From the NCBI GenBank assembly GCA_024231905.1, contig JAAEQC010000102.1:234974-298973 (forward strand): a stretch of DNA of 64,000 nt, in the 5' to 3' direction. Origin of the DNA: a bacterium. Its GTDB lineage: Bacteria; Krumholzibacteriota; Krumholzibacteriia; LZORAL124-64-63. Shown one piece after another: positions 1 through 59,802 of the stretch. Position 1 is the first letter of the stretch. Every line of letters begins with the position of its first letter. The notes under the pieces were generated by a model. The model did no database searches. It was not told the origin of the DNA and saw only the letters and a list, made by a program, of their open reading frames with translations. The position numbers and the translations under genes are program-made.

Positions 1-917
1 CGGACTCCCCGGCGGGAGCGGACGATGACGAGGCGGCCTCGGTTCTCGATGCGGCCGGCCGGCGGCAAGCACGGCGTCCCATCCCCGAGCCGCCGCTGCT
101 GGGCGAGGTGGACCGGGTGCGCGACGTGGTCCTGGAACAGGGGGTGGACCTGGTGGTCCTGACCCTGCCCTTCGACCAGCTGTCCCTGGTGCGGAAGGTG
201 GCCGCGGACCTGGCCAACCTCAATGTCGACCTGCAGTTCGTGCCGGACCTGTTTTCCCTCCACACCAGCCGCATGCGCCTGGAGGAGATTGCCGGCCTGC
301 CTTTCATCTCCGTGCGGGAGGAGGCCCTGGGCGGGGTCGACCGCGTGGTGAAGCGCACCTTCGACCTGGTGGCCACGGGTCTGGGACTGCTGCTGCTCTC
401 GCCGGCCCTGGCGGTGCTGGCCATGTTGGTGAAACTGTCCTCGCCAGGACCCGTCTTCTATCGCCAGGAGCGCATCGGGCGGGACGGTCACGAGTTCGCC
501 ATGGTCAAGTTCCGCACCATGCGCAGCGATGCCGAGGCGACCAGCGGTCCCGTGTGGACTGCCGAGGCCGACCCGCGTGTAACGGCGGTGGGGCGCGTGC
601 TGCGCCGGTACAGCCTGGACGAATTACCGCAGCTGTGGAACGTGCTGCGGGGGGACATGAGCCTGGTTGGGCCCCGGCCGGAGCGGCGGATCTTCGTGGA
701 GAAGTTCGCCCAGGAGATGCCGCGCTATTTCGAGCGCCACCGGGTACAGTCGGGCCTGACGGGCTGGGCGCAGGTCCACGGGTTGCGGGGCAACACCAGC
801 ATTGCCGAACGCACGTTGTACGACCTGCACTACATCGAGAACTGGTCATTGCTGCTGGACGTGAGGATCCTACTCATGACCATCCACCACGTGCTACGCG
901 GGGAGAACGCCTACTGA
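1..917 (+). CDS. Polyprenyl glycosylphosphotransferase (bacterial sugar transferase, WcaJ/Bac_transf family), 5'-truncated by window edge
   Basis: Frame is open from position 3 to the stop at 915-917. The translation contains a CoA-binding-like linker ([10 protein letters not shown]...), a TM helix ([14 protein letters not shown]), and the catalytic C-terminal domain with [10 protein letters not shown]..., FAMVKFRTM and [22 protein letters not shown]. The stop overlaps the next start (TGATG). Confidence 0.8.
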
Positions 918-42932: not shown

Positions 42933-43968
42933 GGAACGGACGGAGATCGTCGCTGGGCTGCCCGACACGGTGCGGCGGATCCTGGCCCCGGGGACGCCGG
43001 TGGTGGTCACCGGTTGCGCCGGCTTCATCGGCAGTTCCCTGACCGAGGTCCTGCTGGAGGCGGGTTGTGCGGTCACGGGGGTCGACTGCCTCACCGACTA
43101 CTACGACCCGGCCCAGAAACTCGAGCACATGGCCGGTTTCGCCGACCATCCGGACTTTACCTTCGTGCGCAAGGACCTGAACGACCTGGATGCCGAGGAA
43201 CTCCTGCGCGGCAAACGCGCCGTCTTCCACCTGGCCGCCCAGGCCGGGGTGCGCGCCAGCTGGGGCCGGACCTTCGACGACTACGTGGCCTTCAACATCA
43301 CCGCCACCCAGCGCCTGCTCGAGGCCTGCAAGGCACCGGATGTGGCCGCCGACCTGGTGCGCTTCGTCTACTCGAGCAGCAGCTCCGTCTACGGCGATCA
43401 GCCGGAATTGCCGGTCACGGAGAAGGCGCTGCCCCAGCCGCGCTCCCCCTACGGCGTGACCAAGATGGCCGCCGAGCACCTGAGCGTGCTCTACGCCATG
43501 AACTACGGCGTGCCCACCAGCAGCCTGCGCTACTTCACGGTCTACGGTCCCCGCCAGAGGCCGGACATGGCCTTCCGCAAGTACATCGAGGCGGCCCTGG
43601 ACGGCCGCGTCTTCCAGGTGTACGGCGACGGTGGCCAGACCCGCGACTTCACCTACGTGGGCGACGCCGTGCGCTCCAACCTCCTGGCCGTGGCCTGCGA
43701 CGAGCCTTGGGGGGTCTTCAACACCGGCGGCGGCAGCCGGGTGGCCTTCGGCGAAACCCTGGACCTGCTGCAGGAGATCCTGCGCGAGCGCGTGCCGGGT
43801 CTGGAAGCTACCGTCGAATACACCGAGACCGCCCGTGGCGACGTCCGCGACACCTTCGCCGACCGGGCCCACGTGGAAGCGGCCATCGGCTACAAGCCCA
43901 CCGTGGGTATGGCCGAGGGTCTGGCCCGCGAAGTGGACTGGGCCATGGCCAGGAGGCGTCAGGCATGA
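42922..43968 (+). CDS. NAD-dependent nucleotide-sugar epimerase/dehydratase (SDR family)
   Basis: Rossmann motif VVVTGCAGFIGSSL and catalytic YGVTK (YxxxK). Overlaps the upstream stop by 11 nt. Confidence 0.8.
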   Translation: MDSRERTEIVAGLPDTVRRILAPGTPVVVTGCAGFIGSSLTEVLLEAGCAVTGVDCLTDYYDPAQKLEHMAGFADHPDFTFVRKDLNDLDAEELLRGKRAVFHLAAQAGVRASWGRTFDDYVAFNITATQRLLEACKAPDVAADLVRFVYSSSSSVYGDQPELPVTEKALPQPRSPYGVTKMAAEHLSVLYAMNYGVPTSSLRYFTVYGPRQRPDMAFRKYIEAALDGRVFQVYGDGGQTRDFTYVGDAVRSNLLAVACDEPWGVFNTGGGSRVAFGETLDLLQEILRERVPGLEATVEYTETARGDVRDTFADRAHVEAAIGYKPTVGMAEGLAREVDWAMARRRQA

Positions 43969-44915
43969 GCGAGGGCGCAGGAAACACCGTACGCAGCGAC
44001 ATCGCCGTGGTGGTGCCCGCCTTCGACGAAGCCGAGTCCCTGCCCGAACTGGTGGAGCGCATCGCCGCGGCCATCGACGCCATGGGCCGGACCTGGGAGG
44101 TGTGGATCGTCGACGACGGTTCCGCTGACGGGACCTTCGCCGTGGTGGAGCGCTTGGCCCAGGATCGTCCGCAGGTCCACGGCCTCAGCTTCGGTCGCAA
44201 CTTCGGCAAGGCGGCGGCCCTGGCCGCGGGCTTCGAGGCCGCGTCGGCTGAACTCGTCGTCACCATGGACGCCGACCTCCAGGACGACCCGGCGGAGATC
44301 CCCCACCTGGTGGCCAAGCTGGAGGAGGGCTGGGACCTGGTCTCCGGCTGGAAGCAGGACCGCCAGGACAGTTTCATCAAGAACAACACCAGCAAGATCT
44401 TCAACTGGTTCACCAGCCGCATGTGCGGGCTCAAGCTCCACGACTTCAACTGCGGCCTGAAGATCTATCGCCGCCAGGTGACTGAACGGGTCAAGCTGTA
44501 CGGCGAGATGCACCGCTACGTGCCGGCCCTGGCCCACCTGGACGGCTTCCGGGTAGCCGAACTGCCGGTGAGGCACGCGGCCCGCAAGTACGGCTCCACC
44601 AAGTACGGCATGGCCCGCTTCATTAACGGTTTCCTGGATCTGCTGACGGTGTATTTCCTGCACGCGCGCCGCACCTCGCCCCTGCATTTCTTCGGGCGCG
44701 GAGGCATGACCTTCCTGGGTGCCGGCGGGGCGATCAGTCTCTATTTCCTGGCCTGGTGGCTCATGGGCCACGGCCTGCGCGTGCGTCCGGTCCTCGTGCT
44801 CGGACTGGTGTTCATCATCGTGGGTTTCCAGTTCATCAGCCTGGGCCTCATCGCCGAACTGGTGGTATCCGGGCGCCATCCCGAAACCGCCTACCGCATA
44901 GCCCGGCGTGTCTGA
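43965..44915 (+). CDS. GT2 polyprenol-phosphate glycosyltransferase (GtrB/ArnC/CsbB-like, membrane-anchored)
   Basis: VVVPAFDEAESL...VDDGSADGT...DADLQDDP are DXD motifs. Two C-terminal TM helices. ATGA overlap with the epimerase; AGGAGG RBS. Confidence 0.8.
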   Translation: MSEGAGNTVRSDIAVVVPAFDEAESLPELVERIAAAIDAMGRTWEVWIVDDGSADGTFAVVERLAQDRPQVHGLSFGRNFGKAAALAAGFEAASAELVVTMDADLQDDPAEIPHLVAKLEEGWDLVSGWKQDRQDSFIKNNTSKIFNWFTSRMCGLKLHDFNCGLKIYRRQVTERVKLYGEMHRYVPALAHLDGFRVAELPVRHAARKYGSTKYGMARFINGFLDLLTVYFLHARRTSPLHFFGRGGMTFLGAGGAISLYFLAWWLMGHGLRVRPVLVLGLVFIIVGFQFISLGLIAELVVSGRHPETAYRIARRV

Positions 44916-45840
44916 ACGGCGCTGCATCCCCGACCGCCGCCAGGGTTTGCCCCCCCTGGTGGCCCTGGTCGTCAACTGGAATGGACGCGACGTCCTGCCC
45001 GAATGCCTGGCCTCCCTCCAGGACGGAGGCTATCCCGGTCTCAGGGTGCTGGTGGTGGACAACGGCTCCGTCGACGACTCGGTGGCCTGGACCCGCGAAC
45101 ACCACCCGGAATGCGAGATTCTCGAGACCGGCCGCAACCTGCGCTGGGCCGGCGGCAACAACGCGGGACTCCGTTACCTGGCTGATGGGGGATACGAGGG
45201 CCACGTCCTGCTCCTGAACAATGACACGGTAGTCCCCGAGGGTAGCCTGCGGCGCCTGGTGGTGGCCCTGGACGCCAACGAGGAGGCCTGGGCGGCCACA
45301 CCACGCATCTGCTACGCCCACGACCCGGCCAGGGCCTGGTACGACGGCGGCACTGTGGGCCGGTGGAGCGGCTGGGTGCGCCATGCGGGGATCCGCAAAT
45401 TGACGGGCAAGCTGCGCATGGAAGAACGCTACGTGGACTGGGGGACCGGCTGCGCCCTGCTGCTGTCCCCGGGGGCCCTGGACGCAGTGGGCGAGTTGGA
45501 CGAGGAGTTCCACTTCTACGGCGAGGACACGGACTACTCCCTGCGCATCACCGCGGCCGGGGGCCGCATCCTGCACGTGCCGCGCTCCCTGGTCCTGCAC
45601 AAGGTGAGCGCCTCGGTGGGCGGGACCACTCCCCTGAAGCTGTGGCTGCGTAGCCGCAGCCATTTGCGCCTGCTGCGCAAGCACTGGCCCGCGCGCAGTT
45701 GGCCCGTGCTGATTCCCCTGCAGGTGGGCTACCTGGCGGGCCACGCGGGCTGGCAATTGTGGCACGGCCGGCCCGAGGCGGCCTGGGCTGTGTGGCAGGG
45801 GGTCCTGGACGAATTGAGGGGCCGGCCCTACGTGGGCTGA
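44908..45840 (+). CDS. Glycosyltransferase family 2
   Basis: LVALVVNWNGRDVL...VVDNGSVDDS...FYGEDTDYSLR is a GT2 rhamnosyltransferase-like fold. GTG start overlaps the upstream stop. Confidence 0.7.
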   Translation: MSERRCIPDRRQGLPPLVALVVNWNGRDVLPECLASLQDGGYPGLRVLVVDNGSVDDSVAWTREHHPECEILETGRNLRWAGGNNAGLRYLADGGYEGHVLLLNNDTVVPEGSLRRLVVALDANEEAWAATPRICYAHDPARAWYDGGTVGRWSGWVRHAGIRKLTGKLRMEERYVDWGTGCALLLSPGALDAVGELDEEFHFYGEDTDYSLRITAAGGRILHVPRSLVLHKVSASVGGTTPLKLWLRSRSHLRLLRKHWPARSWPVLIPLQVGYLAGHAGWQLWHGRPEAAWAVWQGVLDELRGRPYVG

Positions 45841-45895
45841 GGTTTACAGGTGCGCGCCGTCAGTGGTATCATGGTAGCTGAACAACGACAATGAC

Positions 45896-48532
45896 TTGAG
45901 CGCAATGGCGGCGCCTTCCGGGCGGCGTCCGTCGCGCCGTTGCGGATTCTGCCCGGGGGTGGATCCGGAACTTGCCCGCCGGGAGATCTCTTTGGCCAAA
46001 CGCCGCACGGACCAGGAGCGCAGCACCGCCGCGAAACCGGCGGTGCCAGCGTCCCAGTCGCCCAGGCTCCGTACCTGGCTCCTGGTGACGGGCGCCCTCC
46101 TGCTGACCCTGCTCCTGCTCTATCCCGGGGCCGCGTTCCGCGGCGAGATCTTTGGCAGCAGCGACGCGGCCAACTCCGACGCCTTCCGCCTGGCCGGCGA
46201 CCGGTCCCTGGCCGAGGGCTCATACCCCTTGTGGAATCCCTACCTCTTCGCGGGCATGCCCACCTTCGGCTCCCTGTCCTACGTACGATTCCTGTATCCG
46301 CCTTCCATCCTGCTGATGCTCCTGCAGGAAAGCCTGGGATTCCCGCCGTTGACCTGGCTGCTGGCCCACCTGCTCTTTGGCGGCCTGGGCATGGCCTGGT
46401 TCCTGTCCCGCTGGCGGTTGCCGGTGGCTACCCTCGTTCTGGGCGGCGTACTGTGGCTGTTGCTGCCCAAGGTCGTGGCTTGGGGCGTCCACGGTCACGG
46501 CACCAAACTCGGCGCTGCCATGTACCTGCCCTGGATCGTGGGCTGGGCCTGGCGGGTCCTGGACGGTGGCGGCGCCCGGGCGGTGGGCATGACGGGGCTC
46601 CTGCTGGGCCTGCAACTGCTACGGGGCCACGTGCAAATCACCTACTACACCCTGCTGCTGGTGGGGTGGCTGGCCGTGTGGAACGGCCTGTGGCCCCTGG
46701 AGGCGGCGGTCCGCGCCAGGATGGCCGTCCGCTGGCGGCGCTGCGCCATGCTGGGGGGCGGTCTGGCTCTGGGCTTCCTGGTGGGCGCCCTGCTGCTGGT
46801 GCCCGTCCACGGCTACGCGGACCTGTCCATCCGCGGCCAGGATACCTCCGGCGGCGGGGGTGTGGGCATGGACTACGCCACGGGCTGGTCCCTGGCCCCG
46901 GCGGAACTGGGCACCTTCGTGCTGCCGGCGGCGGCGGGCTTCGGGCAGGCCACCTACATGGGCCTCATGCCGTTCACCGACTACCCCAACTATCTTGGCA
47001 TCCTGTTGCTCGCATTGGCGGCCGCCGGTTGGTGGCGCGGCGACCGCAGCCTGACCGTGGCCCTGGCCGTGGCGGCGCTGCTGGCGGTGTTCGTTTCCTT
47101 CGGACGGTACGGCTTCGGTTTCTATGAACTGCTCTACCGCCTGTTGCCCTACTTCAACAAGTTCCGCATCCCGTCGATGATCCTGGTGCTCACGGGATTC
47201 GTGGCCATCGTGCTGGCGGCGCGCGGGGTCGCGGCCTGGCGCGAGGGGACGACGCCCTGGAACCGTCCAGTGGTGCTGCCGGCGGTCCTGGGCCTGGCGG
47301 GGGTGGCCCTGCTCCTGGCGGGAGCTGCGGAATTGGCCAAGGGGACCTACGCCTCCGGTCTGGAGTCCCTGGCCGCCAGGGCTGGCCGTACGGCGGTCCC
47401 GGTGCTTCTGGACACGGCGTGGGATCTGCACAAGGCCAGCCTGGTACGCATCGGCCTGATTCTCATGGCCGCCGCCTCGGCCTTGTTCTACTCCACGCGC
47501 TCGGAGGCCTTCCGCCGCGGCGGTCTGGCCTGGGTGCTGCTCGGATTGCTGGCGGTGGATCTGGCGGGCGTCGATCGCCTCGTGATCCACCCGGAAAAGG
47601 GACTGTCCACGGTGGTCGCCGACGGCTCCGGCGGCGGGCGCCTGGTATCCGCGACCAAGCTCACGGGGCTGCCGACGCGCCAGTCCGCTGAGAGTTCCCC
47701 CTTGGCCCGGACCCTGCTCGCCGAGACGGGCCACGACCGCGTGTGGCCCCTGGGACGGCAGAGCGGCATGAACACCTGGATGGCCGACGGCGTGCATTCC
47801 CTGGGCGGCTACCACCCGGCCAAGCTTGCGGGCTACGAGCAGATCCGCCGCCGCCTCTTCGGCGCCGAGCCCGCCGGCCGCCTGGCCAACTGGCTGGGGG
47901 CACGCGTGGTGGCCTGGGAGGGGACCCTCTCCCCGGCGGACCTGGACTTTCTGGACGCCACGGGCCTGGACCTGGAACGCGCCTCCCGCGGCGACGGCCG
48001 CACAGCCTTGCACCGCAACCGCGCCGCCCTGCCGCGGGCGCGTCTCGTGACCGCCTGGCGCAGGGCATCCGCGTTGCCGGAAGGGGACGCCCTGGAGCCG
48101 TTCCTGGACGCGATCCAGGCCGGCCGCCTGGACGTGACATCCACCGTGACCCTGGACCGGGAGCCCGTGCCGGCCCCCGGCGAGACCGCGAATCCCTTGC
48201 CGGCGGTGGAGTTCCTGACCGACGGCCTCAACGAGGTCGTCCTGGAAACGACGGCCCCGGTCCCGGCCCTGCTCTTGCTTGCGGACATGATGGCTCCTGG
48301 TTGGCGCGTCGAGGTGGACGGCCGCCCGGCCGAGCTGCTGACGGCCGACCTGGTGCTGCGGGCGGTGGCCCTGGAGGCCGGCCGCCACACGGTGCGCTTC
48401 CATTACAGCGACCCGTCGGTGCGGACGGGCCTCCTGCTCAGTCTGACCGGACTCCTGGGAGTCGCGGTCCTGATCCTGTTCCCCTTCCTGCGCCGCCGGC
48501 TGGCGGCGTCCCCGGGTGGCGACCATGAGTGA
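45896..48532 (+). CDS. YfhO-family GT-C membrane glycosyltransferase
   Basis: About 13 TM helices followed by a large extracytoplasmic C-terminal domain, consistent with YfhO. TTG 45896; ATG 45905 is an alternative start. Confidence 0.65.
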   Translation: MSAMAAPSGRRPSRRCGFCPGVDPELARREISLAKRRTDQERSTAAKPAVPASQSPRLRTWLLVTGALLLTLLLLYPGAAFRGEIFGSSDAANSDAFRLAGDRSLAEGSYPLWNPYLFAGMPTFGSLSYVRFLYPPSILLMLLQESLGFPPLTWLLAHLLFGGLGMAWFLSRWRLPVATLVLGGVLWLLLPKVVAWGVHGHGTKLGAAMYLPWIVGWAWRVLDGGGARAVGMTGLLLGLQLLRGHVQITYYTLLLVGWLAVWNGLWPLEAAVRARMAVRWRRCAMLGGGLALGFLVGALLLVPVHGYADLSIRGQDTSGGGGVGMDYATGWSLAPAELGTFVLPAAAGFGQATYMGLMPFTDYPNYLGILLLALAAAGWWRGDRSLTVALAVAALLAVFVSFGRYGFGFYELLYRLLPYFNKFRIPSMILVLTGFVAIVLAARGVAAWREGTTPWNRPVVLPAVLGLAGVALLLAGAAELAKGTYASGLESLAARAGRTAVPVLLDTAWDLHKASLVRIGLILMAAASALFYSTRSEAFRRGGLAWVLLGLLAVDLAGVDRLVIHPEKGLSTVVADGSGGGRLVSATKLTGLPTRQSAESSPLARTLLAETGHDRVWPLGRQSGMNTWMADGVHSLGGYHPAKLAGYEQIRRRLFGAEPAGRLANWLGARVVAWEGTLSPADLDFLDATGLDLERASRGDGRTALHRNRAALPRARLVTAWRRASALPEGDALEPFLDAIQAGRLDVTSTVTLDREPVPAPGETANPLPAVEFLTDGLNEVVLETTAPVPALLLLADMMAPGWRVEVDGRPAELLTADLVLRAVALEAGRHTVRFHYSDPSVRTGLLLSLTGLLGVAVLILFPFLRRRLAASPGGDHE

Positions 48533-49250
48533 GCGTGTGGTGAACAAGGCCGTGGTGATCGTTCCGACCTACAACGAGGCGGAGAACGTGGGCCGCCTGC
48601 TGCCGGCCATCCTCGAGCGGGACGAGCGGCTGTCGGTGCTCGTGGTGGACGACAACTCCCCGGACGGCACGGCGGACGTGGTCAAGGCCCTGCCCGGGTT
48701 CGGCGACCGGATCATGATCCTCGAACGGCCCTGCAAGGCGGGCCTGGGCGCCGCCTACATCGCCGGCTTCCAGTGGGTGCTGGCCAATACGGAGGCCGAC
48801 GCCGTCTTCGAGATGGACGCGGACTTCAGCCACGCCCCCGACGCCCTGGACGAGTTTCTGGTGGAGATCGAAACCCACGACCTGGTCCTGGGCAGCCGCT
48901 ATCTGGGCGGCATCACCGTGGTGAACTGGCCCCTGTCCCGCCTCTTCCTCTCGGTGGGTGCGAACCTCTACGCCCGCGTCGTCACCGGCATGCCCATCCG
49001 CGATTGCACCGGCGGCTTCAAATGTTTCCGCCGCACGACCCTCGAACAACTCCCCCTGGGGGAGATCAAGAGCGACGGCTATTCCTTCCAGATCGAACTC
49101 AATTACCACTGCTGGCGCCGGGGGCTGACCATCAAGGAGATCCCCATCATCTTCACGGACCGTGTGGTGGGCGTCTCCAAGATGTCGCGCCGCATCATCG
49201 CCGAGGCCATGTGGATGGTGTGGGCCCTGCGCCTGAGGCGAATCCCTTGA
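48525..49250 (+). CDS. Polyprenol-monophosphomannose synthase-like GT2 (Ppm1/DPM1-like, soluble)
   Basis: VVIVPTYNEAENV...VVDDNSPDGT...EMDADFSHAP...GSRY is a DPM1-like catalytic domain without a TM anchor. Overlaps the YfhO stop by 8 nt. Confidence 0.8.
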   Translation: MSERVVNKAVVIVPTYNEAENVGRLLPAILERDERLSVLVVDDNSPDGTADVVKALPGFGDRIMILERPCKAGLGAAYIAGFQWVLANTEADAVFEMDADFSHAPDALDEFLVEIETHDLVLGSRYLGGITVVNWPLSRLFLSVGANLYARVVTGMPIRDCTGGFKCFRRTTLEQLPLGEIKSDGYSFQIELNYHCWRRGLTIKEIPIIFTDRVVGVSKMSRRIIAEAMWMVWALRLRRIP

Positions 49251-49270
49251 CCGGGGGCAACCTGTTTCCG

Positions 49271-51382
49271 GTGAAGCTGGCCGTGGTCATCGTCCACTAC
49301 AACACGAGCGACGACCTGGCCCGCTGTCTGGAATCCCTGAACGCCTACGGGCCGCCGGACGACTTCCGGATCGTGGTGGTGGACAACGCCTCCCGCGACG
49401 AGGGCCTGGCCGAGGTGCACCGCCGCTTCCCCGACTGTGAGTGGATCTTCAACGCGGACAACCAGGGCTACTCCCGCGGCTGCAACCGGGGCCTCGCCGC
49501 AGTGGAGGCCGAGTACTACCTGCTGCTCAACCCGGACGTGGTGGTCAAGCCCGGGGCCCTGGCCCGCCTGCTGGAATTCGCCGACGCCCACCCGCGGGCG
49601 GGCATCATCGGTCCCCAGTTGTTGAACGAGGACGGCACCATCCAGCATTCGTGCCGGCGCTTCTACACCTTCTGGACCCTGGTCCTGCGCCGCACCTTCC
49701 TGGGCAGGCTCTTCCCGGACAGCCGGCCGGTCCGGCGCCATCTCATGCAGGACTTCGACCACCGCTCGGCCCGTCCGGTGGACTGGCTCCTGGGCGGCTG
49801 CCTGCTTGTGCGCCGCAGCGCCGTCGATCGTACCGGCCCCATGGACGAGCGTTTCTTCCTCTACTTCGAGGACGTGGACTGGTGCTACCGCATGTGGCGC
49901 GCGGGCTGCGAGGTTCTCTACACCCCCGACGCGCGCTTCGTCCACCGACACAGGCGTTCCAGCGCCCAGGGCGCCACGAGCCGTTCCTTCTGGTTGCATC
50001 TGGGCTCCCTCATCTCCTTCTACGAGAAGTGGGGCGCGCTGGTGTGGCTGTTCAAGAAGTGGCGGGATCCCCTGCTGCTGTTCGTCATGTGGCTGCTGGA
50101 CATGACCGGCCTGGCGGCAGCCTTCGGACTGGCCTACGGGCTGCGAAATCTGGGGCACGACCTCTTCCCCGAGCAACTCTACCCCTTCGCCGAGTACCGG
50201 CCCCTGCTCCTGTTCGGGCTACTGCTGGCGACCCTCACCTTCGTCCTGGCGGGACGCTACCGCGGCGAGCATCTGCGCCGGCGGCGATCCGTGGTTGAAC
50301 ACCTGCAACAGACGGGCATCGTGGCGGTGCTCATGCTGGCCAGCACGTACCTGGGACACCTGGAGGTGGTCAGCCGGGCGGTGCTCCTGATGTTCGTGCC
50401 GCTGCTGGTGGTTTTCACGGCCCTGGGGGACGGTCTGGTGCGGCGCGTGCTGCGGCGGCTGGAACGCGGACACCTCTCCCTGGAACGCACGCTGCTGGTG
50501 GGACCGGCAGCGGTCTGGCGCACCTGGCTCGACCGGGCCGGGGACCTGGCGGCCCAGGGGGTCGACGTGGCCGGCTTCGTGGACGATCCGGGCGCCCTGG
50601 AATCGTTGCCGCCCCTGGCGGGTGGCACGGTGCCCTGGCTGGGCCGCCCGGCCGAGGCCGCGGACGTGGCCGAGCGGTACCGCATATCCCAGGTAGTGTT
50701 CCGGGATCTGCCGCCGCCGGGCGATCCCCTGTGGACGGCCGTGGGTGCCCTGCGCCGCATGCGAGTCCGCCTGCGCTGGCAGGGGGACGGCGTGTGGCTC
50801 CTGGCGGCTGCCACGCGCATGGAAGTCTTCGGAGGCGGGCTGAGCGCAGTTCAGGGCCAGGCGGGACGGCGAGCGGCCGGAGCCCTGGGGCGCCGTTTGT
50901 GCGGCGCGGTGGCGGGACTGCTGCTGGGCGTGGCGGCAGCGCTGCCCTGGGCCTGGTTGCGGCTGGTGGATGTTCGGCAAGGGCGTGCGCGGATCGACCG
51001 TGTGACCGCCTGGGACCGCTGGCGCGGGGGCACGCCCCTGGTACTCGCCTTGGCCACCGACGGCCAGGTGAAAGGTCTGGTCTGGCAGTGGCCGCTGGCC
51101 TGGTCCCTCCTGACCGGACGGGTGGCCATGTGGGGCGAACAAGCCCGGGCGGACGGGCCGCCGCCTCCGCCGCCGACCACCGGGGACCTCATGGATTTCT
51201 GGCGCGCCGAACCGGCGCCGCCGGGTTTGACGGGCGCCTGGGCGGCAGCCGGGGGAGGCGGCCGGCTGCGGGCGATCTGCGCTCGCCTGTGGCGCGATCC
51301 GGGCGGATTCGGTAACGTCGCGGAAACAGTACGAGCTAGGGAAGTCGTCGAGAAGGACCCTCCGGGCACCGAGGTGGAATGA
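49271..51382 (+). CDS. Fusion protein: N-terminal GT2 glycosyltransferase plus C-terminal multi-TM and CoA-binding-like module resembling the non-catalytic N-terminal half of WcaJ-type sugar transferases
   Basis: GT2 motifs (VVIVHYNTSDD, VVVDNASRDEG, FYFEDVDWCYR). Then 4-5 TM helices and LLVGPAAVWRTWLDRAGDLAAQGVDVAGFVDD...RISQVVF. No Bac_transf catalytic domain. GTG 49271; TTG 49247 is an alternative start. Confidence 0.65.
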   Translation: MKLAVVIVHYNTSDDLARCLESLNAYGPPDDFRIVVVDNASRDEGLAEVHRRFPDCEWIFNADNQGYSRGCNRGLAAVEAEYYLLLNPDVVVKPGALARLLEFADAHPRAGIIGPQLLNEDGTIQHSCRRFYTFWTLVLRRTFLGRLFPDSRPVRRHLMQDFDHRSARPVDWLLGGCLLVRRSAVDRTGPMDERFFLYFEDVDWCYRMWRAGCEVLYTPDARFVHRHRRSSAQGATSRSFWLHLGSLISFYEKWGALVWLFKKWRDPLLLFVMWLLDMTGLAAAFGLAYGLRNLGHDLFPEQLYPFAEYRPLLLFGLLLATLTFVLAGRYRGEHLRRRRSVVEHLQQTGIVAVLMLASTYLGHLEVVSRAVLLMFVPLLVVFTALGDGLVRRVLRRLERGHLSLERTLLVGPAAVWRTWLDRAGDLAAQGVDVAGFVDDPGALESLPPLAGGTVPWLGRPAEAADVAERYRISQVVFRDLPPPGDPLWTAVGALRRMRVRLRWQGDGVWLLAAATRMEVFGGGLSAVQGQAGRRAAGALGRRLCGAVAGLLLGVAAALPWAWLRLVDVRQGRARIDRVTAWDRWRGGTPLVLALATDGQVKGLVWQWPLAWSLLTGRVAMWGEQARADGPPPPPPTTGDLMDFWRAEPAPPGLTGAWAAAGGGGRLRAICARLWRDPGGFGNVAETVRAREVVEKDPPGTEVE

Positions 51383-53787
51383 GCATGCGGCACACAGGAA
51401 GCGGAAGACTCATGACGGCCTGCGCCCTGGCGTTGCTGGCGGTGGCGGCCGCCACGGCGGCAGCGGCGCCCGTATTCGAGCCCCTGACCCGGGCCCGCGA
51501 AGTAAGCACCCTGCTCGAACTGGACGGAAAGGTCTTCGGGGGCACGGGCGACGGCGGCGTGTTCGTATGGGACGCCGACGATCCCGGGCAGTTCGAACGC
51601 TGGACCGCCGGCACCCAACTGGGCAGCGCCCGGGTAGTGGATCTGGCCTGGACCGGACGCTACCTGTGGGTCGCCACCGACGACGGCGGCCTGACCCGGG
51701 TGGAGGACCCGGCCTCGGACGCACCGTCTTTCCGGCAGATCGGCTCGACCATGTCCACCTTCGCCACCACCGCCGTGGCCGGTCTATTGCGGGGCGACCA
51801 GGAACGGGTCTGGTACGGTCTGGGTGACGGCGGTCTGGGGGAGATCACCGACGGCTTCGACGGTTCGGTTTATACCACCAGCGACGGTCTGGTCAGCGAC
51901 ACGATCCGGGCGCTCCACATCCACGACGGTGAACTGTGGATCGGAACGCCCGCCGGCATCTCCCGTTTCGCCGACGGGGTCTTCCACGACGCCACCGCCG
52001 GCCTGGCCGGCCTGAACACCCGCGTCTTCGTCACCGACACCGCCGGCGATCTCTTCGCCGCCGGCAGCGGCGGTGTCCATCGCTGGGACTCCTCCGGGGA
52101 GGCCTGGGTATCCCTGGGCGGTATCGGCCGTACAGTGGTCGGCCTGGCGGTGGTGGCCGACGATCTCTACGCGCTGGGCGCCTACGCCGGCGGAACGGCG
52201 ACCCTGCACCGGTGGAACGGCACCGGATTCGACGACCTGGCTCTGCCCGAGCCCCGGACCCTGGCCACCGGCGGCGGCACGGCGGTCTGGCTGGGCGGCC
52301 GGATCGACGAACCCGGCATGCAGGTGAACCGTTCGGGACTGGCCTTCTACGCACGTCTGGACGCGGGCGGCGCGACCACGGTCTGGCAGCCGGCCCTGAC
52401 CCTGCCCGCCAACTGCGCGGGGGTGACTTTCGGCGCCGACGGCCGCCCGTGGCTCGGCTCCCGCTGGGGCGAGGCCTTCTCCGGTCGCCGGGATGACGGT
52501 ACCTGGGAAAACATCTACGAGATAGCCACGGTGGCCAACGACTCCTCCGGTCTCATCAACCAGATCGCACCCATTCTGGCCATGGCCACCGGCGCCGATG
52601 GCGTGGTCTGGGTGCCCCAGACCGGCTCCGGCGTGCTACGCCACGATCCGGCCACGGGCCGAACCGACCAGATCCGCCCCTTCAACAGCGGCCTGTCAGG
52701 GAATTCGCTGATCGGCGCCGTGGGGCATCCGGACGGCCCGGTTCTTTTCCTGCACGACTGGCTGGACACGGACGACAAGGTGGACGTGCTGGTGGACCCG
52801 GTCCACTGGCGCAATCCGGCGAACTGGCTCAGCCTGCCCCTGGGATCGGGCGGCCTGGGCGACGGTCCCAACGTATGGGACGCCCACGTGGCGCGGCGCG
52901 ACCAGATCTGGTTCGCTGTGGAGGGCACGGGTCTGGTGCGCTGGGACGTCAACGGCCTGAGCGCCGGACCCGACGATCCGCTGACCTGGCTCGATCAGTC
53001 CGACGACCACTGGACCGCACCCGTGAACGACTTCCCGAATACCTTCCTCGACCCGACCCAGGCGCGAGGCATCGACGACGGCCCAGGCGGTTCCCTGTGG
53101 GTGGGCGGCAACGGCGTGGTGCGCTTCCGCTACGACGGCGGCCTGATCACCACCCTGGACGACCTGGGCACGGCCGCCGGCGACGAGGGCGGCCTGAGCA
53201 ACAGCCGCGTGTACGACGTGGCCACCGACCGCCACGGGTACCTGTGGGTGGCGAACGCCTCGGGTCTGGACCGGGTCCGGCTCGGAGCGGGCGACCCTGT
53301 GGTGGACTCGTGGTTCGACGCCCTGACCTATGCCACGGACGGCGGCATCAACGGCCGCTACCTGTCCACCGCCATCGCCGACATGCCTGGCTCGAACTAC
53401 GACTTCGCGCGCCTGGCCCTGGATTCCGACCGCGGGCGCCTCCTGCACAGCGGCGACCGGGGTGTGTCCCTGGTCGACGTGGGCGGGCCGGTGGGTGCGG
53501 CGAGCGGCTCCGCATCGGCGCAACTCTATCCGAATCCCTGGCGCCCGGAACTGGGCGACGGTCTGCTCAGGATCGGCGGTCTGGGCGTGGAACCGGGGGA
53601 GACGGTCGAGGTGGGCATCTACACCGTCGAAGGCCAGCTGGTCTACCAGGATCCGACAGTGGCGCCGGACACGGGCTTCTGGCGAGGCGTCAACCGGGTG
53701 GGCAACCCGGTGGCGACGGGCCTGTACGTGGTGAAGGTGTCCTGGCGCGGAGAACACCTGATGCGGACCCTGGCGGTGGTCAGGTGA
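51379..53787 (+). CDS. Secreted beta-propeller (Reg_prop-like repeat) protein with a C-terminal T9SS-type / FlgD-Ig-like sorting domain
   Basis: Signal peptide (LALLAVAAATAAAAP). Repeated GG..R.D..G.LW.G. propeller-blade motifs. C-terminal roughly 90 aa LYPNPWRPELGDG...GLYVVKVSWRGEHLMRTLAVVR matches the Por/T9SS C-terminal-domain pattern. ATGA overlap upstream. Confidence 0.65.
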   Translation: MSMRHTGSGRLMTACALALLAVAAATAAAAPVFEPLTRAREVSTLLELDGKVFGGTGDGGVFVWDADDPGQFERWTAGTQLGSARVVDLAWTGRYLWVATDDGGLTRVEDPASDAPSFRQIGSTMSTFATTAVAGLLRGDQERVWYGLGDGGLGEITDGFDGSVYTTSDGLVSDTIRALHIHDGELWIGTPAGISRFADGVFHDATAGLAGLNTRVFVTDTAGDLFAAGSGGVHRWDSSGEAWVSLGGIGRTVVGLAVVADDLYALGAYAGGTATLHRWNGTGFDDLALPEPRTLATGGGTAVWLGGRIDEPGMQVNRSGLAFYARLDAGGATTVWQPALTLPANCAGVTFGADGRPWLGSRWGEAFSGRRDDGTWENIYEIATVANDSSGLINQIAPILAMATGADGVVWVPQTGSGVLRHDPATGRTDQIRPFNSGLSGNSLIGAVGHPDGPVLFLHDWLDTDDKVDVLVDPVHWRNPANWLSLPLGSGGLGDGPNVWDAHVARRDQIWFAVEGTGLVRWDVNGLSAGPDDPLTWLDQSDDHWTAPVNDFPNTFLDPTQARGIDDGPGGSLWVGGNGVVRFRYDGGLITTLDDLGTAAGDEGGLSNSRVYDVATDRHGYLWVANASGLDRVRLGAGDPVVDSWFDALTYATDGGINGRYLSTAIADMPGSNYDFARLALDSDRGRLLHSGDRGVSLVDVGGPVGAASGSASAQLYPNPWRPELGDGLLRIGGLGVEPGETVEVGIYTVEGQLVYQDPTVAPDTGFWRGVNRVGNPVATGLYVVKVSWRGEHLMRTLAVVR

Positions 53788-55226
53788 TGCCCCCGTCCCG
53801 CCTGCTCGTGGTCGGGGCGGGAGTGGCCGGCCAGACCCTGGTGCGCGAGATCCTGCGGGACCGCTTGCCCGCCGAACCGGTGGCTTTCCTGGACGACGAC
53901 GAAAGCCTGGCCGGACAGACCGTCTGCGGGTTGCCGGTGCTGGGCACCTCCGAGGACCTGGAGCGCGTGGCCAGCGAAGTGGACGCCCAGGAGGTCCTGC
54001 TGGCGATTCCCTCGTCGGGCGGACGCCTCGTTCGGCGCCTGGTCATCCTCTGCAAGCGTGCCGGACTGCCCTTCCGCATCGTGCCCGGCCTACGCGACAT
54101 CATTCTCGGCGACGTGAGCTTCGCCCAGGTGAGCCACGTGGAGCCGGAGCATCTGCTTGGCCGGGAGTCTGTGGACTTCAAGGACGAGGAGGCCAGCCGG
54201 GTGGTGGCTGGAAGGCGGGTCCTGGTGACCGGCGCCGGCGGTTCCATCGGCTCCGAACTGTGTCGGCACCTGCTGGACCTCGAACCGGCGGAGCTGATCC
54301 TGCTGGGCCGGGGGGAGAACAGCCTCTTCGACATCGGCACCGAGTTGGAGTCGCAGCGCGGCGAAACGCGCTTGCAGACGGTCATCGCCGACGTGCGGGA
54401 CCGGGCGCGGCTGAGGGTTCTCGCCGGCCGCCTGCAACCGGATCTCATCCTGCACGCGGCCGCCCACAAGCACGTTCCCTTCATGGAGGACAACCCGGAG
54501 GAGGCGGTGGCCGTCAATGTGGGGGGCACGGCCAACCTCATCGAGTTCGCCAGGACCGTGGGGGCAGAGCGCTTCGTGCTGATCAGCACCGACAAGGCGG
54601 TCATGCCCTCGAGCATCATGGGCGCCACCAAGAAGCTCGCCGAACAACTGGTGCGGCAGGCGGCGGCCGATGGCGATGGCACGCGCTTCATGACCGTGCG
54701 CTTCGGCAACGTCCTGGGCAGCCGCGGTTCGGTGGTCCCCTTCTTCATGAAGCGGATCGCCGCGGGTCAGCCCCTGCCCATCACCGACCCCCAGATGACC
54801 CGCTACTTCATGACCATCAAGGAGGCGGCGCTGCTGGTCATCGAGGCCATGGTGCTGGGGGAACGGGGTGCCACCTACATCCTGGAGATGGGCAACGCGG
54901 TCTCGATTCTGGAGCTCGCCCGGAACCTGCTCGTGCTGTCGGGCTACGATCCGGCGGGCGGCGACGACGGCCCCGGCATCGAGATCACCGGTCTCCGGCC
55001 CGGAGAACGCCTGCACGAAGTGCTCCACGAACCCGACGAGCAACTCCTGCCCAGCGAGAATCCCCTGATCCGGCGCGCGGTGGCCGGCGACACGGATCCG
55101 GCCCGGGTGGCCGCGGCCGTGGACGACCTGCTGGCCCTGGCCGTGGCCGGGGATACGGGCGGACTACGCCGCCTACTGGCCGATCTCACCGGGCGCGCCG
55201 TCCTCGTGGCGCCGCCACTCGAGTAG
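53787..55226 (+). CDS. Polysaccharide biosynthesis protein CapD / UDP-GlcNAc 4,6-dehydratase (PglF/WbpM-like, soluble form)
   Basis: Two Rossmann-like regions (LLVVGAGVAGQ, VLVTGAGGSIGSEL) and a catalytic region (FVLISTDKAV...MGATKKLAE). Start at ATG 53787 or GTG 53784, overlapping the upstream stop. Confidence 0.8.
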   Translation: MPPSRLLVVGAGVAGQTLVREILRDRLPAEPVAFLDDDESLAGQTVCGLPVLGTSEDLERVASEVDAQEVLLAIPSSGGRLVRRLVILCKRAGLPFRIVPGLRDIILGDVSFAQVSHVEPEHLLGRESVDFKDEEASRVVAGRRVLVTGAGGSIGSELCRHLLDLEPAELILLGRGENSLFDIGTELESQRGETRLQTVIADVRDRARLRVLAGRLQPDLILHAAAHKHVPFMEDNPEEAVAVNVGGTANLIEFARTVGAERFVLISTDKAVMPSSIMGATKKLAEQLVRQAAADGDGTRFMTVRFGNVLGSRGSVVPFFMKRIAAGQPLPITDPQMTRYFMTIKEAALLVIEAMVLGERGATYILEMGNAVSILELARNLLVLSGYDPAGGDDGPGIEITGLRPGERLHEVLHEPDEQLLPSENPLIRRAVAGDTDPARVAAAVDDLLALAVAGDTGGLRRLLADLTGRAVLVAPPLE

Positions 55227-55236
55227 GGGCGCGGCG

Positions 55237-56301
55237 GTGGAGGTCGGCATCCAGGCGACAACGCCCGCGGATTGGCCCGCCCTGGTGGCGGCCGATCCGG
55301 CGGCCGACTACTTCCATACCGCTGCCTGGAGTTCCATCGTCGCCCGTCACGTGCCCGGCGCCCGCGCCCTGTGGATCACCGTGCGCGACGCCGGCGAACT
55401 CGTGGGCGGCCTGGCTGCCGTTGCCCTGGGCGGTACGGTGCGACGCTGCCACTCGGGAGCCTTCGGTTGTGCCGGCGGACCCCTGGTGGCCGACGGCGAC
55501 GCCCGCCGCGGCCCGGTCATCGCCGGCCATCTCCTGGACGAACTGGTCGGTCGGCGGGGCGGTCTCCTGGCATCGGTCGGCGTCTCCCTCAATCCGGACC
55601 ACGAAGAACGCTGGGGCGGACGCCTCGCTGCCGACGCCCGTTTCCGGCGGGTCGACACTCCCGCGGCCGTGGTCTCCCTGGACGGCGGACCTGACGCCGT
55701 CGCCGCCCGCATGCGCAAGAGCAAGCGCAACGAACGCAACCGCGGCCTGCGGCGCGGTGCCGAATTCCTGGTGACCCGGGACCCGGATCACCTGGCGGCC
55801 TACCATCGCATCCACGTGCAGGCAGCCGGCGCCTGGGGCCAACCGGCGGTCCCTTTGGCCATGCTGCAGGACCTGCTCGACCAGGGGGCGGGCCCCGAGG
55901 GGGGCGAAGCCTACTTCGTAGCCGTGCGCTGCGAGGGACGGATCGTGGGCGGGCACCTGAACTTCCACCTGGGCGGGTCGGTCACCGCCTGGCATGGCGT
56001 CACCGATCCGGTCCTGGCCCGCACCCACTTCCCGTCCACCGTGGCCGTGTGGGGGGACGCGGTGGAGGCCTGCCGCCGCGGTGCGACCAGCCTGGATCTG
56101 GGGGGCAGCGGCGGCATCCCCTCCCTGGAGTCCTTCAAGCGGGGCTTCGGCGCCGAACGCCGGGAGCGTGGCTGGTACGTGGCGGAAACGGCGCCGCTGC
56201 GGCTGCTGCGGAGCCTGCGCGGCCTGGTCCGGCGCAAGGAAGGCAACGGGCGACGCTGGCACGACGGCGCCACCGGCGCGTCCGGTGGAGGTACGCCGTG
56301 A
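55237..56301 (+). CDS. FemAB-like / GNAT-fold (Acetyltransf_6) acyl- or aminoacyl-transferase
   Basis: Duplicated GNAT-like halves (YFHTAAWSSIV...; VTAWHGVTDP...LDLGGSG...SLESFKRGFGA), as in FemAB-family proteins. GTG start. Confidence 0.55.
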   Translation: MEVGIQATTPADWPALVAADPAADYFHTAAWSSIVARHVPGARALWITVRDAGELVGGLAAVALGGTVRRCHSGAFGCAGGPLVADGDARRGPVIAGHLLDELVGRRGGLLASVGVSLNPDHEERWGGRLAADARFRRVDTPAAVVSLDGGPDAVAARMRKSKRNERNRGLRRGAEFLVTRDPDHLAAYHRIHVQAAGAWGQPAVPLAMLQDLLDQGAGPEGGEAYFVAVRCEGRIVGGHLNFHLGGSVTAWHGVTDPVLARTHFPSTVAVWGDAVEACRRGATSLDLGGSGGIPSLESFKRGFGAERRERGWYVAETAPLRLLRSLRGLVRRKEGNGRRWHDGATGASGGGTP

Positions 56302-57611
56302 GACTCCTGGCCGCGGGCGCCCGCATCCTGTCCGGCCGCGTGGCCCAGATCCTGGCCAACGCCGCAGTGGTTTTCTGGGTGGCCAAGACCCTGGGACCCA
56401 CGGGGCAGGGCCACTACAGTCTCACCGTGGCCGTGGCCCAGCTCGCGGCTGCCCTCCTGGCCGGCGGCATGGGCCTGGCGGCGGTGCCACCCCTGCGCCG
56501 GGACCGCATCCCGGCGGCCCGCATGGTCTCGGTCCAGGCCGGCTGGGCCGGCGCTACGGGGCTGGTGCTGCTGGGCGTGGCCGCCCTGGCCGGCGGTGGG
56601 GCGGTGGGCGCCTTCTTCGCCCGGCATCTGGGCTGGTCGCCGGGGCTGGCCTTCGCCGTGGCCATCGGCGCCACCGGATTGCTCACCTTCGAGATCTTCT
56701 CCTACGACCTGCTGGCCCGTGGCAGGCTGGTCATCGGTTCGGCCATCAACGGCTGGCGCGCCGCCGGCCACCTGGTGATCGTCGGCACCGCGGGCCTGGC
56801 CGGGATGCTCGGCTTCGCCCAGGCGGTGGGGGCCTTCGCCCTGGCCCAGTGTGCGGGCGCGGCGGTCCTGGTGGGGGTCGTCCTGCGGGAGATCCGCCGG
56901 CCTTGGCCCCGGCCCGGCGCCAAGCCCGGTCCGCCCGCGCCCCTGCGCGACAAGGAGCTCCCGGCGGACCTGGCGTCCTACTCCCGCCTGCGGTTGGTCC
57001 TGTTCAACCTTCAGCGGGGTTGGCTGGGACAGCTCTCGGCCGTGGCCTACTTTCTGCTGCTGCGCCTGGACCAGGGACTGCTGGCCCGCTACCACGGTGC
57101 AGCGGAGGTGGGGGTGTACTCGGTGGCGGTGCATCTGGGCGAGATGCTGTGGTTGTTGCCCGGGGCCATGACGCCTCTGCTGGTCCATACCTCGGCGGCC
57201 GACGCCGGCGATCCGGACCGTAACCGCACGGCCGTGCGGGCCGTGGGCATCGGCATGGTCGTGACCCTGGCCGCGGCGGTACCCCTGGCCCTGGTGGCGG
57301 GTCCCCTGCTGTCCCTGTTGGCCGGCGGCGCCTATGCCGGCGCGGTTCCGGCCCTGCGGGCCCTGCTGCCCGGCATCGTGGCCTTCGCCCCGGGGGCGGT
57401 CCTGGCCGGCGACTTCATCGGTCGCGGTAAACCCCATTGGAACACCCAGGCCAGCCTGTTGACCGTGGTGGTGAACCTGGCAGCGGGCCTGTGGCTCATC
57501 CCCGAGCACGGGGCCGTGGGCGCGGCCTGGTCCAGCACGGTGGCCTATGCCTGCGGGTCGGCTCTGATGCTGATTCGCTTCCGGCAAGCGATCCGCCGCG
57601 ACCAGGCCTGA
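56298..57611 (+). CDS. MOP-superfamily polysaccharide flippase (Wzx-like)
   Basis: About 12-14 TM helices with Wzx-like topology. GTG overlaps the upstream stop (GTGA). Confidence 0.65.
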   Translation: MRLLAAGARILSGRVAQILANAAVVFWVAKTLGPTGQGHYSLTVAVAQLAAALLAGGMGLAAVPPLRRDRIPAARMVSVQAGWAGATGLVLLGVAALAGGGAVGAFFARHLGWSPGLAFAVAIGATGLLTFEIFSYDLLARGRLVIGSAINGWRAAGHLVIVGTAGLAGMLGFAQAVGAFALAQCAGAAVLVGVVLREIRRPWPRPGAKPGPPAPLRDKELPADLASYSRLRLVLFNLQRGWLGQLSAVAYFLLLRLDQGLLARYHGAAEVGVYSVAVHLGEMLWLLPGAMTPLLVHTSAADAGDPDRNRTAVRAVGIGMVVTLAAAVPLALVAGPLLSLLAGGAYAGAVPALRALLPGIVAFAPGAVLAGDFIGRGKPHWNTQASLLTVVVNLAAGLWLIPEHGAVGAAWSSTVAYACGSALMLIRFRQAIRRDQA

Positions 57612-57703: not shown

Positions 57704-57827
57704 GCGGAGGTGATCAGTGGGGAAAAAGGGTTAGATGTGGTGAAAGTGGCGGGAGGCCGAAGGAGCGGCATAAAACTCAAAGGATTGAGCGTAACTCCCG
57801 CCACTAAAACCACTTGAACGGATTGAG

Positions 57828-58304
57828 ATGACCGACCAAACCCACAGCACGGACCAGGGCGCGGCCTTCACCTTTCATGGCTCCTACACGCGAGCGGTGG
57901 ATGTGAAAGGCCGTTTCAACCTGCCCTTCCGGTTCCGGCACCAGGGCGCCGACGACGAGAAATACGTGGTCTCCAAGGGACCTGACGGCAATCTGGCCGT
58001 CCATCCCCACAGCGCCTGGATTGCCGCCTACAACCGGATGATGAATGGTGCGCCCGGACCCGAGCTGCGGAGGAACCTGCGGCGCATGAGCCGGGACAGC
58101 TCCCCGGTCCAGCCCGACGCCCAGGGGCGGATCGCTGTGCCGGCGGAACTGCTGGCGGGCGTGGGGATCGGTCGCAAGGTGACCGTCATCGGAGTCGGCG
58201 CCTACATGGAACTCTGGGATCCGGAAGCCCTCGATACGGGCGACGCCGTGGCCGGCGAACCGGATACCGCGTTCAACGACCTCTTCTTCGGGGGAGGGAG
58301 CTGA
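57828..58304 (+). CDS. mraZ: Transcriptional regulator MraZ
   Basis: Duplicated MraZ halves (VDVKGRFNLP...; AQGRIAVPAELL...), first gene of the dcw cluster. Confidence 0.85.
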   Translation: MTDQTHSTDQGAAFTFHGSYTRAVDVKGRFNLPFRFRHQGADDEKYVVSKGPDGNLAVHPHSAWIAAYNRMMNGAPGPELRRNLRRMSRDSSPVQPDAQGRIAVPAELLAGVGIGRKVTVIGVGAYMELWDPEALDTGDAVAGEPDTAFNDLFFGGGS

Positions 58305-58450
58305 CGCACCACGATGTCCGGCGGCAAGGATGCCAAGCCGGGATCGGCCGGGCGGTGAACGCTGATGGAGCGGCGACCGCCCGGCCCGGGCAAACCAACG
58401 AGCAACGACATCCGCCCACGGAAGGGCGACACTTGGGAAGGAGCCCGCAA

Positions 58451-59781: not shown

Positions 59782-59802
59782 CCGATTGCCCGAGGAGGGA
59801 CG

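Follow-up and report, generated by a model that had tools for sequence, protein, structure and literature searches.

The gene at positions 49271–51382 of a 64,000-nucleotide stretch of DNA from a bacterium of the Krumholzibacteriota (contig JAAEQC010000102.1; the whole stretch is called the window below) encodes a fusion protein that carries a family 2 glycosyltransferase (GT2) at its N-terminus and, behind it, the body of a large phosphoglycosyltransferase (LgPGT). Profile and alignment comparisons show this protein to consist of an intact GT2 and an LgPGT body that, judged by its residues, is catalytically disabled, and place its gene within a conserved cluster of predicted envelope-glycosylation genes. 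Probably a complete LgPGT acquired the GT2 at its N-terminus and its phosphoglycosyltransferase (PGT) domain became a pseudoenzyme; the GT2 would be active, and the LgPGT body would anchor and regulate it.

Domain organisation of the fusion protein

A first-pass annotation, made by eye, had described the protein as a GT2 joined to the N-terminal module of a WcaJ-type enzyme, and the strings that it quoted (LLVGPAAVWRTW, GVDVAGFVDD and RISQVVF) are all present in the 703-residue translation. Both parts were borne out by Pfam and NCBIfam profile searches. The N-terminal domain, which has the GT-A fold, matched Glycos_transf_2 at residues 5–123 (3e-21; PF00535, 76.4 bits against a cut-off of 23.3) and Glyco_tranf_2_3 at residues 3–233 (2e-18; PF13641, 67.7 bits against a cut-off of 27), and thus belongs to the GT2 family. 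Behind it, TIGR03025 (EPS polyprenyl glycosylphosphotransferase) aligned residues 276–523 with positions 2–240 of its 445 (1.3e-15), and TIGR03023 (WcaJ) likewise covered its N-terminal half only. The recognition by eye was therefore correct, since the profiles match exactly the non-catalytic N-terminal half of WcaJ-type enzymes. The segments are listed in Table 1 with the neighbouring genes.

The AlphaFold2 (AF2) model of the whole protein has a mean predicted local distance difference test score (pLDDT) of 86.4 and a predicted template modelling score (pTM) of 0.81. Four transmembrane (TM) helices, homologous to the four-helix bundle of LgPGTs, are predicted at residues 265–294, 306–326, 341–361 and 369–399 with pLDDT of ~85–98, and because their number is even the GT2, the domain of unknown function (DUF, PF13727) and the C-terminal part would all be cytoplasmic, as in the LgPGT topology. 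PF13727 (CoA_binding_3) was detected at residues 327–475 with 34.1 bits (cut-off 25); G411, D432, G435, R471 and Q474 are invariant in this region. A β-hairpin (residues 516–528, with E518, F520 and V527 conserved in at least 90%) sits at the position of the dimer-swap hairpin of WbaP, an LgPGT that dimerises through its DUF and hairpin and the DUF of which binds UMP/UDP (PMC10942596). When residues 262–703 were modelled separately, the best Foldseek match was 3nkl, an N-domain of the WbpM/PglF type (E 8.6e-3, TMt 0.59).

Table 1. Features of the fusion gene and of its surroundings in the window (residue numbers refer to the fusion protein).
Feature	Positions	Strand	Basis
GT2 (GT-A fold) domain, aa 1–233	49271..49969	+	Pfam
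Linker/interface helices, amphipathic, aa 234–265 (SFWLHLGSLISFYEKWG..VWL.KKWRDP)	49970..50065	+	conservation
Four TM helices, aa 266–400	50066..50470	+	TIGR03025/TIGR03023, AF2
PF13727 and β-hairpin, aa 401–530	50471..50860	+	Pfam, Foldseek
Putative re-entrant helix remnant, aa 531–568 (GRRLCGAVAGLLLGVAAALP/WAWLRLV)	50861..50974	+	hhalign, AF2
Putative vestigial Bac_transf core, aa 569–660	50975..51250	+	hhalign, motif table
W605-Q606, position of the Asp-Glu dyad of monotopic PGTs	51083..51088	+	ungapped register
Divergent C-terminal tail, aa 661–703, and stop	51251..51382	+	conservation, AF2
C-terminal 304 aa of canonical LgPGT, cut by window edge	3..917	+	Bac_transf 5.9e-70, 235 bits
TMEM260-like protein O-mannosyltransferase-type GT-C, 943 aa	40101–42932	+	PF11028 2.5e-45
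NAD-dependent epimerase/dehydratase	42661–43968	+	Pfam domain from aa 114
YfhO-like GT-C membrane glycosyltransferase, 878 aa	45896..48532	+	weak PF09586 5e-6, below cut-off
Dpm1/AglJ/PpgS-like GT2 (polyprenyl-phosphate sugar synthase type), 244 aa	48516..49250	+	PF00535 1.7e-26
PorZ-like β-propeller protein, 802 aa	51379–53787	+	downstream neighbour of the fusion gene
PglF/PseB-like UDP-GlcNAc 4,6-dehydratase	53790–55226	+	PF13727 C-terminal half
FemAB-like acyltransferase	55237–56301		downstream in 51/80 loci
MOP-family (MOP/MurJ-like) flippase	56301–57611		downstream in 27/80 loci

Origin of the C-terminal tail

The first-pass annotation had held that the catalytic Bac_transf domain (PF02397) of such enzymes is absent and had been replaced by the GT2. 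Pfam indeed found no Bac_transf match at E ≤ 10 on the whole protein, on residues 261–703 or on residues 501–703, and a home-built hidden Markov model (HMM) gave none in 27 orthologues from the clade of the window's protein (the target clade); the search for CoA_binding_3 and Bac_transf that the annotation had proposed thus detects the former only. Profile–profile comparison, however, places a degenerate and shortened remnant of Bac_transf at residues ~531–660, so that the GT2 did not replace the domain but joined a complete LgPGT at its N-terminal end.

The evidence for this remnant is a chain of profiles. A phmmer search with residues 261–703 against 1.84 billion representatives returned only 110 matches in three groups: close relatives of the fusion protein; proteins of ~700 residues with 27–31% identity, in which the match extends into the tail; and ordinary LgPGTs of ~460 residues, in which it is limited to the four TM helices and the DUF. 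The distant ~700-residue relatives carry a GT2, PF13727 and a weak PF02397 of 29–90 bits, compared with 235 bits for the window's own PGT. In hhalign the tail of the target clade aligned with this distant fusion clade over 127 columns (E 1.2e-9, probability 96%), the distant clade aligned with canonical Bac_transf (E 1e-34, 99.9%), and the direct comparison of the target-clade tail with canonical Bac_transf gave E 1.6e-4 and 50%. The window's canonical PGT also matched, in tblastn, the C-termini of fusions of the Eisenbacteria type with 25–35% identity.

The consensus of 30 aligned tails (G.RL..GL.L.....LPWLWLRL.....GR.R...V...D.WG..P.L.LA....GRVLPL.WQW.LA..LL.GR..L.GPR...(~20)...L.FWR.EP..PGLTG.W) keeps five Bac_transf landmarks in order, namely KRxxD, the proline-containing re-entrant helix, strands of the pattern GPV.f...R.G, the GPRP block and PGiTG; the GPRP block is retained as LLxGRxxLxGPR and the last landmark as PGLTG. 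The segment that hhalign aligned with the canonical KRxxD and re-entrant helix begins in a KRxxD-like manner at R542, and AF2 predicts helices at residues 533–555 and 557–567 with a break at P556 (pLDDT 95–97), comparable to the Ser-Pro break in the re-entrant helix of PglC. The tail as a whole is predicted with pLDDT of 85–97 over residues 541–680, falling below 50 in the last ~10 residues, and its elements follow the order expected from the motifs: helix–break–helix, two strands, a short helix, a strand and more helices. Taken together, the profile comparisons show the C-terminal ~170 residues to descend, as far as sequence relationships tell, from Bac_transf. A 4-TM and PF13727 module taken from the N-terminus of a PglF-type dehydratase was also considered as the source of the membrane part and was rejected, because the Bac_transf remnant comes after the module; the module therefore descends from an LgPGT and not from a dehydratase.

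Integrity and distribution of the fusion gene

The gene is one unbroken open reading frame (ORF) of 703 codons and a stop on the forward strand, with a GTG start at 49271. Translation could also begin at a TTG at 49247, which shares bases with the TGA that ends the gene upstream (TTGA, 49247–49250); the deposited NCBI protein MCP4572416.1, a 100% match in the protein collection that comes from a 395-kb MAG contig, begins with this TTG and has 711 residues. The G+C content at third codon positions (GC3) is 0.82–0.95 in the frame of the fusion gene from ~49240 to ~51220, and no other frame takes over.

The matches listed from the protein collection comprise 120 cluster representatives, one of them the query's own deposited protein and the others 51–84% identical to it; 116 of them are at least 670 residues long, and their Pfam records name a GT2 in all, PF13727 in most and PF02397 in none. 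The ~700-residue GT2-LgPGT architecture was found in more than 190 clusters from metagenome-assembled genomes (MAGs) of Krumholzibacteriota, Eisenbacteria and Latescibacteria. A scan of the genomes of species representatives yielded ~70 complete genes of 663–728 residues among 80 loci, including one on a 6.45-Mb chromosome and one on a 4.7-Mb contig; these loci are the best 80 of 579 genome hits, a figure that is not a count of fusions since the scan was seeded on GT2 motifs. The loci are labelled as Krumholzibacteriota, Eisenbacteria/Eiseniibacteriota, Latescibacteria or unclassified bacteria, and the few that bear the names of Burkholderiaceae, Patescibacteria or Gemmatimonas are probably binning errors.

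The first-pass annotation had asked whether the fusion is real, and the answer is affirmative. A frameshift or chimera merging an ordinary GT2 gene with a truncated PGT gene has practically no probability left and was rejected, since the coding signal runs continuously in a single frame and the full-length architecture recurs in the above clusters and complete genes, which are independent and come from different studies and assemblers.

Loss of catalytic residues and pattern of conservation

Monotopic PGTs possess a conserved catalytic Asp-Glu dyad (PMC10942596, PMC10519829), and in PglC the residues Arg88, Arg145 and Lys179 bind undecaprenyl phosphate (PMC10519829). At the dyad position the fusion protein has W605-Q606; this correspondence was obtained by counting back without gaps from the GPRP block, and the hhalign alignments are gapped around WQW and do not set it exactly opposite DE. 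Within the target clade the dyad columns hold Trp in 103 of 117 and Gln in all 117 sequences, and in the sister clade of the Eisenbacteria type DE occurs in 0 of 77, the residues being SR, DR, SA, SV and others. Overall, the dyad is present in 39/39 aligned unfused LgPGTs but in 0/194 fusion proteins. The unfused LgPGTs from the same searches also carry KFR(S/T)M or a close variant, whereas nothing in the proteins of the target clade aligns to KFRTM, and neither DE nor KFRTM was found in any of the ~70 genome-derived fusion proteins. The columns equivalent to Arg88 hold Val or Leu. Furthermore, the span from KRxxD to GPRP measures ~86 residues as against ~108 in the canonical PGT of the window, ~20 residues being deleted between the positions of KFRTM and of the dyad, and LW.DPGGFG takes the place of the canonical C-terminal helix motif D..YI.NWS..lD..Il in target-clade proteins. 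Among the 120 listed relatives of a C-terminus of the Eisenbacteria type there was no active GT2-LgPGT intermediate, and the nearest dyad-bearing proteins were unfused.

Conservation scores are the frequencies of the most common residue in each column, averaged over a segment. In the fusion family the scores are 0.86 for the linker, 0.81 for the GT2, 0.70 for the four TM helices, 0.65 for the PF13727 DUF and 0.51–0.55 for the PGT remnant, with the lowest value, 0.38, at the C-terminal end. In 53 canonical LgPGTs the whole N-terminal half scores 0.34 and Bac_transf 0.57. The pattern is thus inverted with respect to real LgPGTs, the GT2 and linker being the most and the PGT part the least conserved. 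Several positions of the remnant and tail are nevertheless kept in at least 90% of sequences (R542, G549, L603, Q606, G622, F643/W644, G652-L653-G655-W657 and P677-G679), and this constraint suggests that some structural or binding role persists.

The C-terminal ~200 residues of sister-clade proteins (loci L046, L047, L051, L054, L067 and L070) contain a conserved RHGL(S/D/A)xFP where the canonical sequence is RxxS(L/I)DELPQ. Decay may have gone less far in these proteins, or they may retain a residual function of another kind.

These data also bear on the reading of the protein as a bifunctional phosphoglycosyltransferase (BiPGT), in which the C-terminal domain would be an active PGT with non-canonical residues and the GT2 would add the second sugar. 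A class of BiPGTs with fused glycosyltransferases is already established (PMC11626204), and relatives of the Eisenbacteria type, in which PF02397 exceeds its threshold, go by the name "sugar transferase" in databases. Q606 never varies, the sister clade conserves RHG, and a minority keep the Asp. In addition, a canonical PGT is missing from the ±10 kb around the fusion gene in all 80 loci, the window's own being 48 kb away. Against an active domain stand the missing dyad and KFRTM, the deletion of ~20 residues, the lack of the canonical C-terminal helix motif and of any Pfam PGT match in the target clade, and a PGT domain that is the least conserved part of the protein, the reverse of real LgPGTs. 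Such a bifunctional enzyme is accordingly regarded as very improbable.

The interpretation as a GT2 carried by a pseudoenzyme has observations to contend with as well. The structural comparison of residues 262–703 with PglC (8g1n) was weak, if spread over the full length of PglC (E 0.14/0.34, probability 0.72/0.63, 194–210 columns of 193 residues), the same Foldseek search returned no WbaP match, and a sequence profile run against the PDB retrieved GT2s only, neither WbaP nor PglC; as confirmation of the fold is weak, the homology of the tail rests on the chain of profiles and not on structure. Some proteins of the Eisenbacteria type retain the dyad Asp (DR, DG, DA), although never the Glu, and the invariant Q606 within a strongly conserved WQW suggests continuing selection on what was once the active site, which could bind a ligand or catalyse in an unusual manner. 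Finally, every fusion sequence comes from MAGs of uncultured organisms. All of these points count against the preferred interpretation.

The window does encode a canonical PGT, as the first-pass annotation had stated, at its very start. The part inside the window comprises the end of PF13727, an intact KFRTM and the dyad in SLDELPQ, and gave the Bac_transf match listed in Table 1; that the enzyme is a full one, as was claimed, concerns sequence beyond the window edge.

The glycosyltransferase domain and the linker

The GT2 is probably the only catalytic domain of the fusion protein. The acidic residues typical of GT2s, D38, D89 (NPD), E200, D201 and D203 (FEDVD), are all invariant in 117 sequences and, by analogy with other enzymes of this family, are candidates for the nucleotide- and metal-binding Asp residues and the catalytic acid. 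Two further invariant stretches rich in arginine, C128-R129-R130-F131-Y132...R140-R141-T142 and H225-x-H227-R228-R229, are candidate binders of a phosphate-bearing acceptor. The nearest relatives of the domain in sequence and fold are GT2s of the WbbL type or similar to cd04186, together with K4CP, TarP, TarS and WrtF. Many members of the fusion family bear the automatic JGI name N-acetylglucosaminyl-diphospho-decaprenol L-rhamnosyltransferase; the GT2 reached no cut-off of a WbbL-type family (TIGR01556, 56 bits against a cut-off of 200).

The linker, which follows the GT2, is the most conserved segment of the protein, with 20 of its 32 positions conserved in at least 90%. AF2 predicts helices in it at residues 238–248 and 252–263, with pLDDT of only 52–57.

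Genomic context

The glycosylation cluster extends over 40101–57611 and lies directly upstream of mraZ-mraW-ftsL-ftsI of the division and cell wall (dcw) cluster at 57795–62423. Gene order elsewhere, derived by searching the 80 loci in tblastn with the neighbours from the window, is remarkably constant. The gene of the Dpm1-like protein, which has partial NCBIfam matches to AglJ, PpgS, dolichyl-phosphate hexose transferase and ArnC, directly abuts the fusion gene on its upstream side in 74/80 loci. The two genes overlap by one base in locus L001 and abut or overlap in nearly all loci; this overlap, with the overlapping stop and start TTGA in the window, suggests that they are translationally coupled. 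Farther upstream, the YfhO-like GT-C is found ~3.2 kb from the fusion gene in 62 of the loci, the TMEM260-like GT-C ~9 kb away in 36 and the epimerase/dehydratase in 44, and a second GT2 at −4.3 kb was matched in 73 loci, many of them through the fusion's own GT2 domain. The mechanically called ORF of the epimerase begins before the TMEM260-like gene has ended; its true start probably lies ~300 nt further downstream.

The two GT-C genes (TMEM260-like and YfhO-like), set against one obvious Dpm1-like synthase, raise the possibility that the fused GT2 itself makes polyprenyl-phosphate sugars, as synthases of the ArnC/GtrB/DPMS type do, and supplies one of the GT-Cs, the dead PGT being kept as a binding site for polyprenyl phosphate that presents the lipid to the GT2. 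The topology, with a GT2 followed by interface helices and TM segments, resembles that of DPMS and ArnC, both of which are among the fold matches, and the re-entrant helix and its R542 anchor are kept. The DPMS, GtrB and ArnC glycosyltransferases acting on polyprenyl phosphate are not the nearest relatives of the GT2 in sequence or fold, and we consider this assignment unlikely, if less so than an active bifunctional enzyme.

Downstream, the β-propeller protein is found at +2.1 kb in 45/80 loci. Its N-terminal part matches the double β-propellers of hybrid two-component sensors (3v9f, 3e-11) and its C-terminal ~110 residues match PorZ of P. gingivalis (5m11, 1.7e-7), NCBIfam T9SS_PorZ being matched at 2e-11, far below the cut-off. 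With this PorZ-like neighbour, the product of the cluster might, on sequence grounds, be a glycolipid with a link to type IX secretion. The PglF/PseB-like dehydratase shares its accessory domain with the fusion protein 2.5 kb away, and it or a DegT aminotransferase is found downstream in 41/80 loci. This dehydratase matches positions 126–240 of TIGR03025 and apparently lacks the usual four TM helices of PglF. The FemAB-like enzyme and the MurJ-like flippase beside dcw could point to a product linked to the cell wall; mraZ-mraW-ftsI lies downstream in ~27/80 loci, where the linkage of the cluster to dcw is conserved.

Elsewhere in the window there are two very long ORFs, at 20562–24539 (forward strand, 1325 residues) and 26940–30995 (reverse strand, 1351 residues), with GC3 of 0.86–0.89 and a strong coding signal.

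Proposed function

In the mechanism that we propose for the fusion of a GT2 with a PGT pseudoenzyme, the GT2 would be the sole catalyst; working on the cytoplasmic side of the membrane, it would use an anionic glycan as acceptor, probably one linked to polyprenyl (di)phosphate. The dead LgPGT body would serve as membrane anchor and, through the PF13727 hairpin, as a probable dimerisation module as in WbaP, possibly sensing uridine nucleotides; it would position the GT2 and may dock the Dpm1-like synthase, the separate active PGT or both. The part of scaffold or chain-length regulator that the first-pass annotation had suggested for the module might also fit a dead PGT body. The protein would thereby act within the conserved cluster next to dcw, together with the TMEM260-like and YfhO-like GT-Cs, the Dpm1-like synthase, the second GT2, the dehydratase/aminotransferase, the FemAB-like enzyme and the MOP flippase.

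A more elaborate and rather doubtful possibility, which we rate a little above that of a polyprenyl-phosphate sugar synthase, is a metabolon in which the dead body heterodimerises with the active LgPGT of the genome by a swap of the PF13727 hairpins, docks the Dpm1-like synthase, or does both, so that the initiating enzyme would hand lipid intermediates directly to the fused GT2. In that case the 4-TM and DUF module shared by LgPGTs and PglF-type dehydratases would be an autonomous platform for assembly and regulation that outlives PGT catalysis.

What the accessory domains of LgPGTs, 4-TM and PF13727, do is an acknowledged open question (PMC10942596). The fusion family would provide a natural experiment: across Krumholzibacteriota, Eisenbacteria and Latescibacteria PGT catalysis appears to have been lost and the accessory domains have been kept, better conserved than the remnant, apparently serving the fused GT2. 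Their retention after the loss of catalysis argues for a role that is independent of phosphoglycosyl transfer, and the family offers a tractable construct in which the accessory module of LgPGTs is separated from PGT catalysis.

Comparison with known systems

Monotopic PGTs initiate most bacterial surface-glycan pathways. On the features found here the fusion family should not be filed among them, because detection of PF02397, the dyad and KFRTM all failed, even though the architecture agrees. The annotations in the sister clade ("sugar transferase" or "GT2 / lipopolysaccharide... glycosyltransferase") overstate function, and the label of sugar transferase or of bifunctional GT2/PGT would mislead pathway reconstruction, since the cluster would then seem to contain an active initiating enzyme of its own, which it lacks. 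The literature that was searched, the coverage of which did not extend to the sequence similarity network (SSN) survey of 2021, describes neither an inactive PGT paralogue nor a clade of GT2-LgPGT fusions.

With LgPGTs such as WbaP, WcaJ and CpsE (PF13727 and PF02397) the fusion protein shares the four TM helices, PF13727, the hairpin, the re-entrant helix with its KRxxD-like start, the GPRP and PGxTG motifs and the cytoplasmic orientation. It differs from them in having W605-Q606 for the dyad, no KFRTM, ~20 residues fewer and another C-terminal helix motif, in a PF02397 that is undetectable and a PGT part that is the least conserved, and in the additional N-terminal GT2. The GT2s of the WbbL type, those similar to cd04186 and the glycan-modifying ones, unlike the fusion protein, have no LgPGT body. 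In the dehydratases PglF, WbpM and CapD the same 4-TM and PF13727 module precedes a catalytic domain of another kind (PMC10942596), whereas in the fusion protein the module comes after the catalytic domain and keeps a PGT remnant.

In BiPGTs, for example PglB of Neisseria, a second carbohydrate-active catalytic domain or an acetyltransferase is fused to the PGT core (PMC11626204, PMC12776464). The fusion protein likewise joins an additional catalytic domain, the GT2, to a domain derived from a monotopic PGT within one ORF. BiPGTs, however, have been described with two active domains, whereas the PGT half of the fusion lacks the dyad and KFRTM in 194/194 relatives as read from their sequences, and the partner domain of BiPGTs sits on a small core, whereas the GT2 of the fusion sits on a full LgPGT body.

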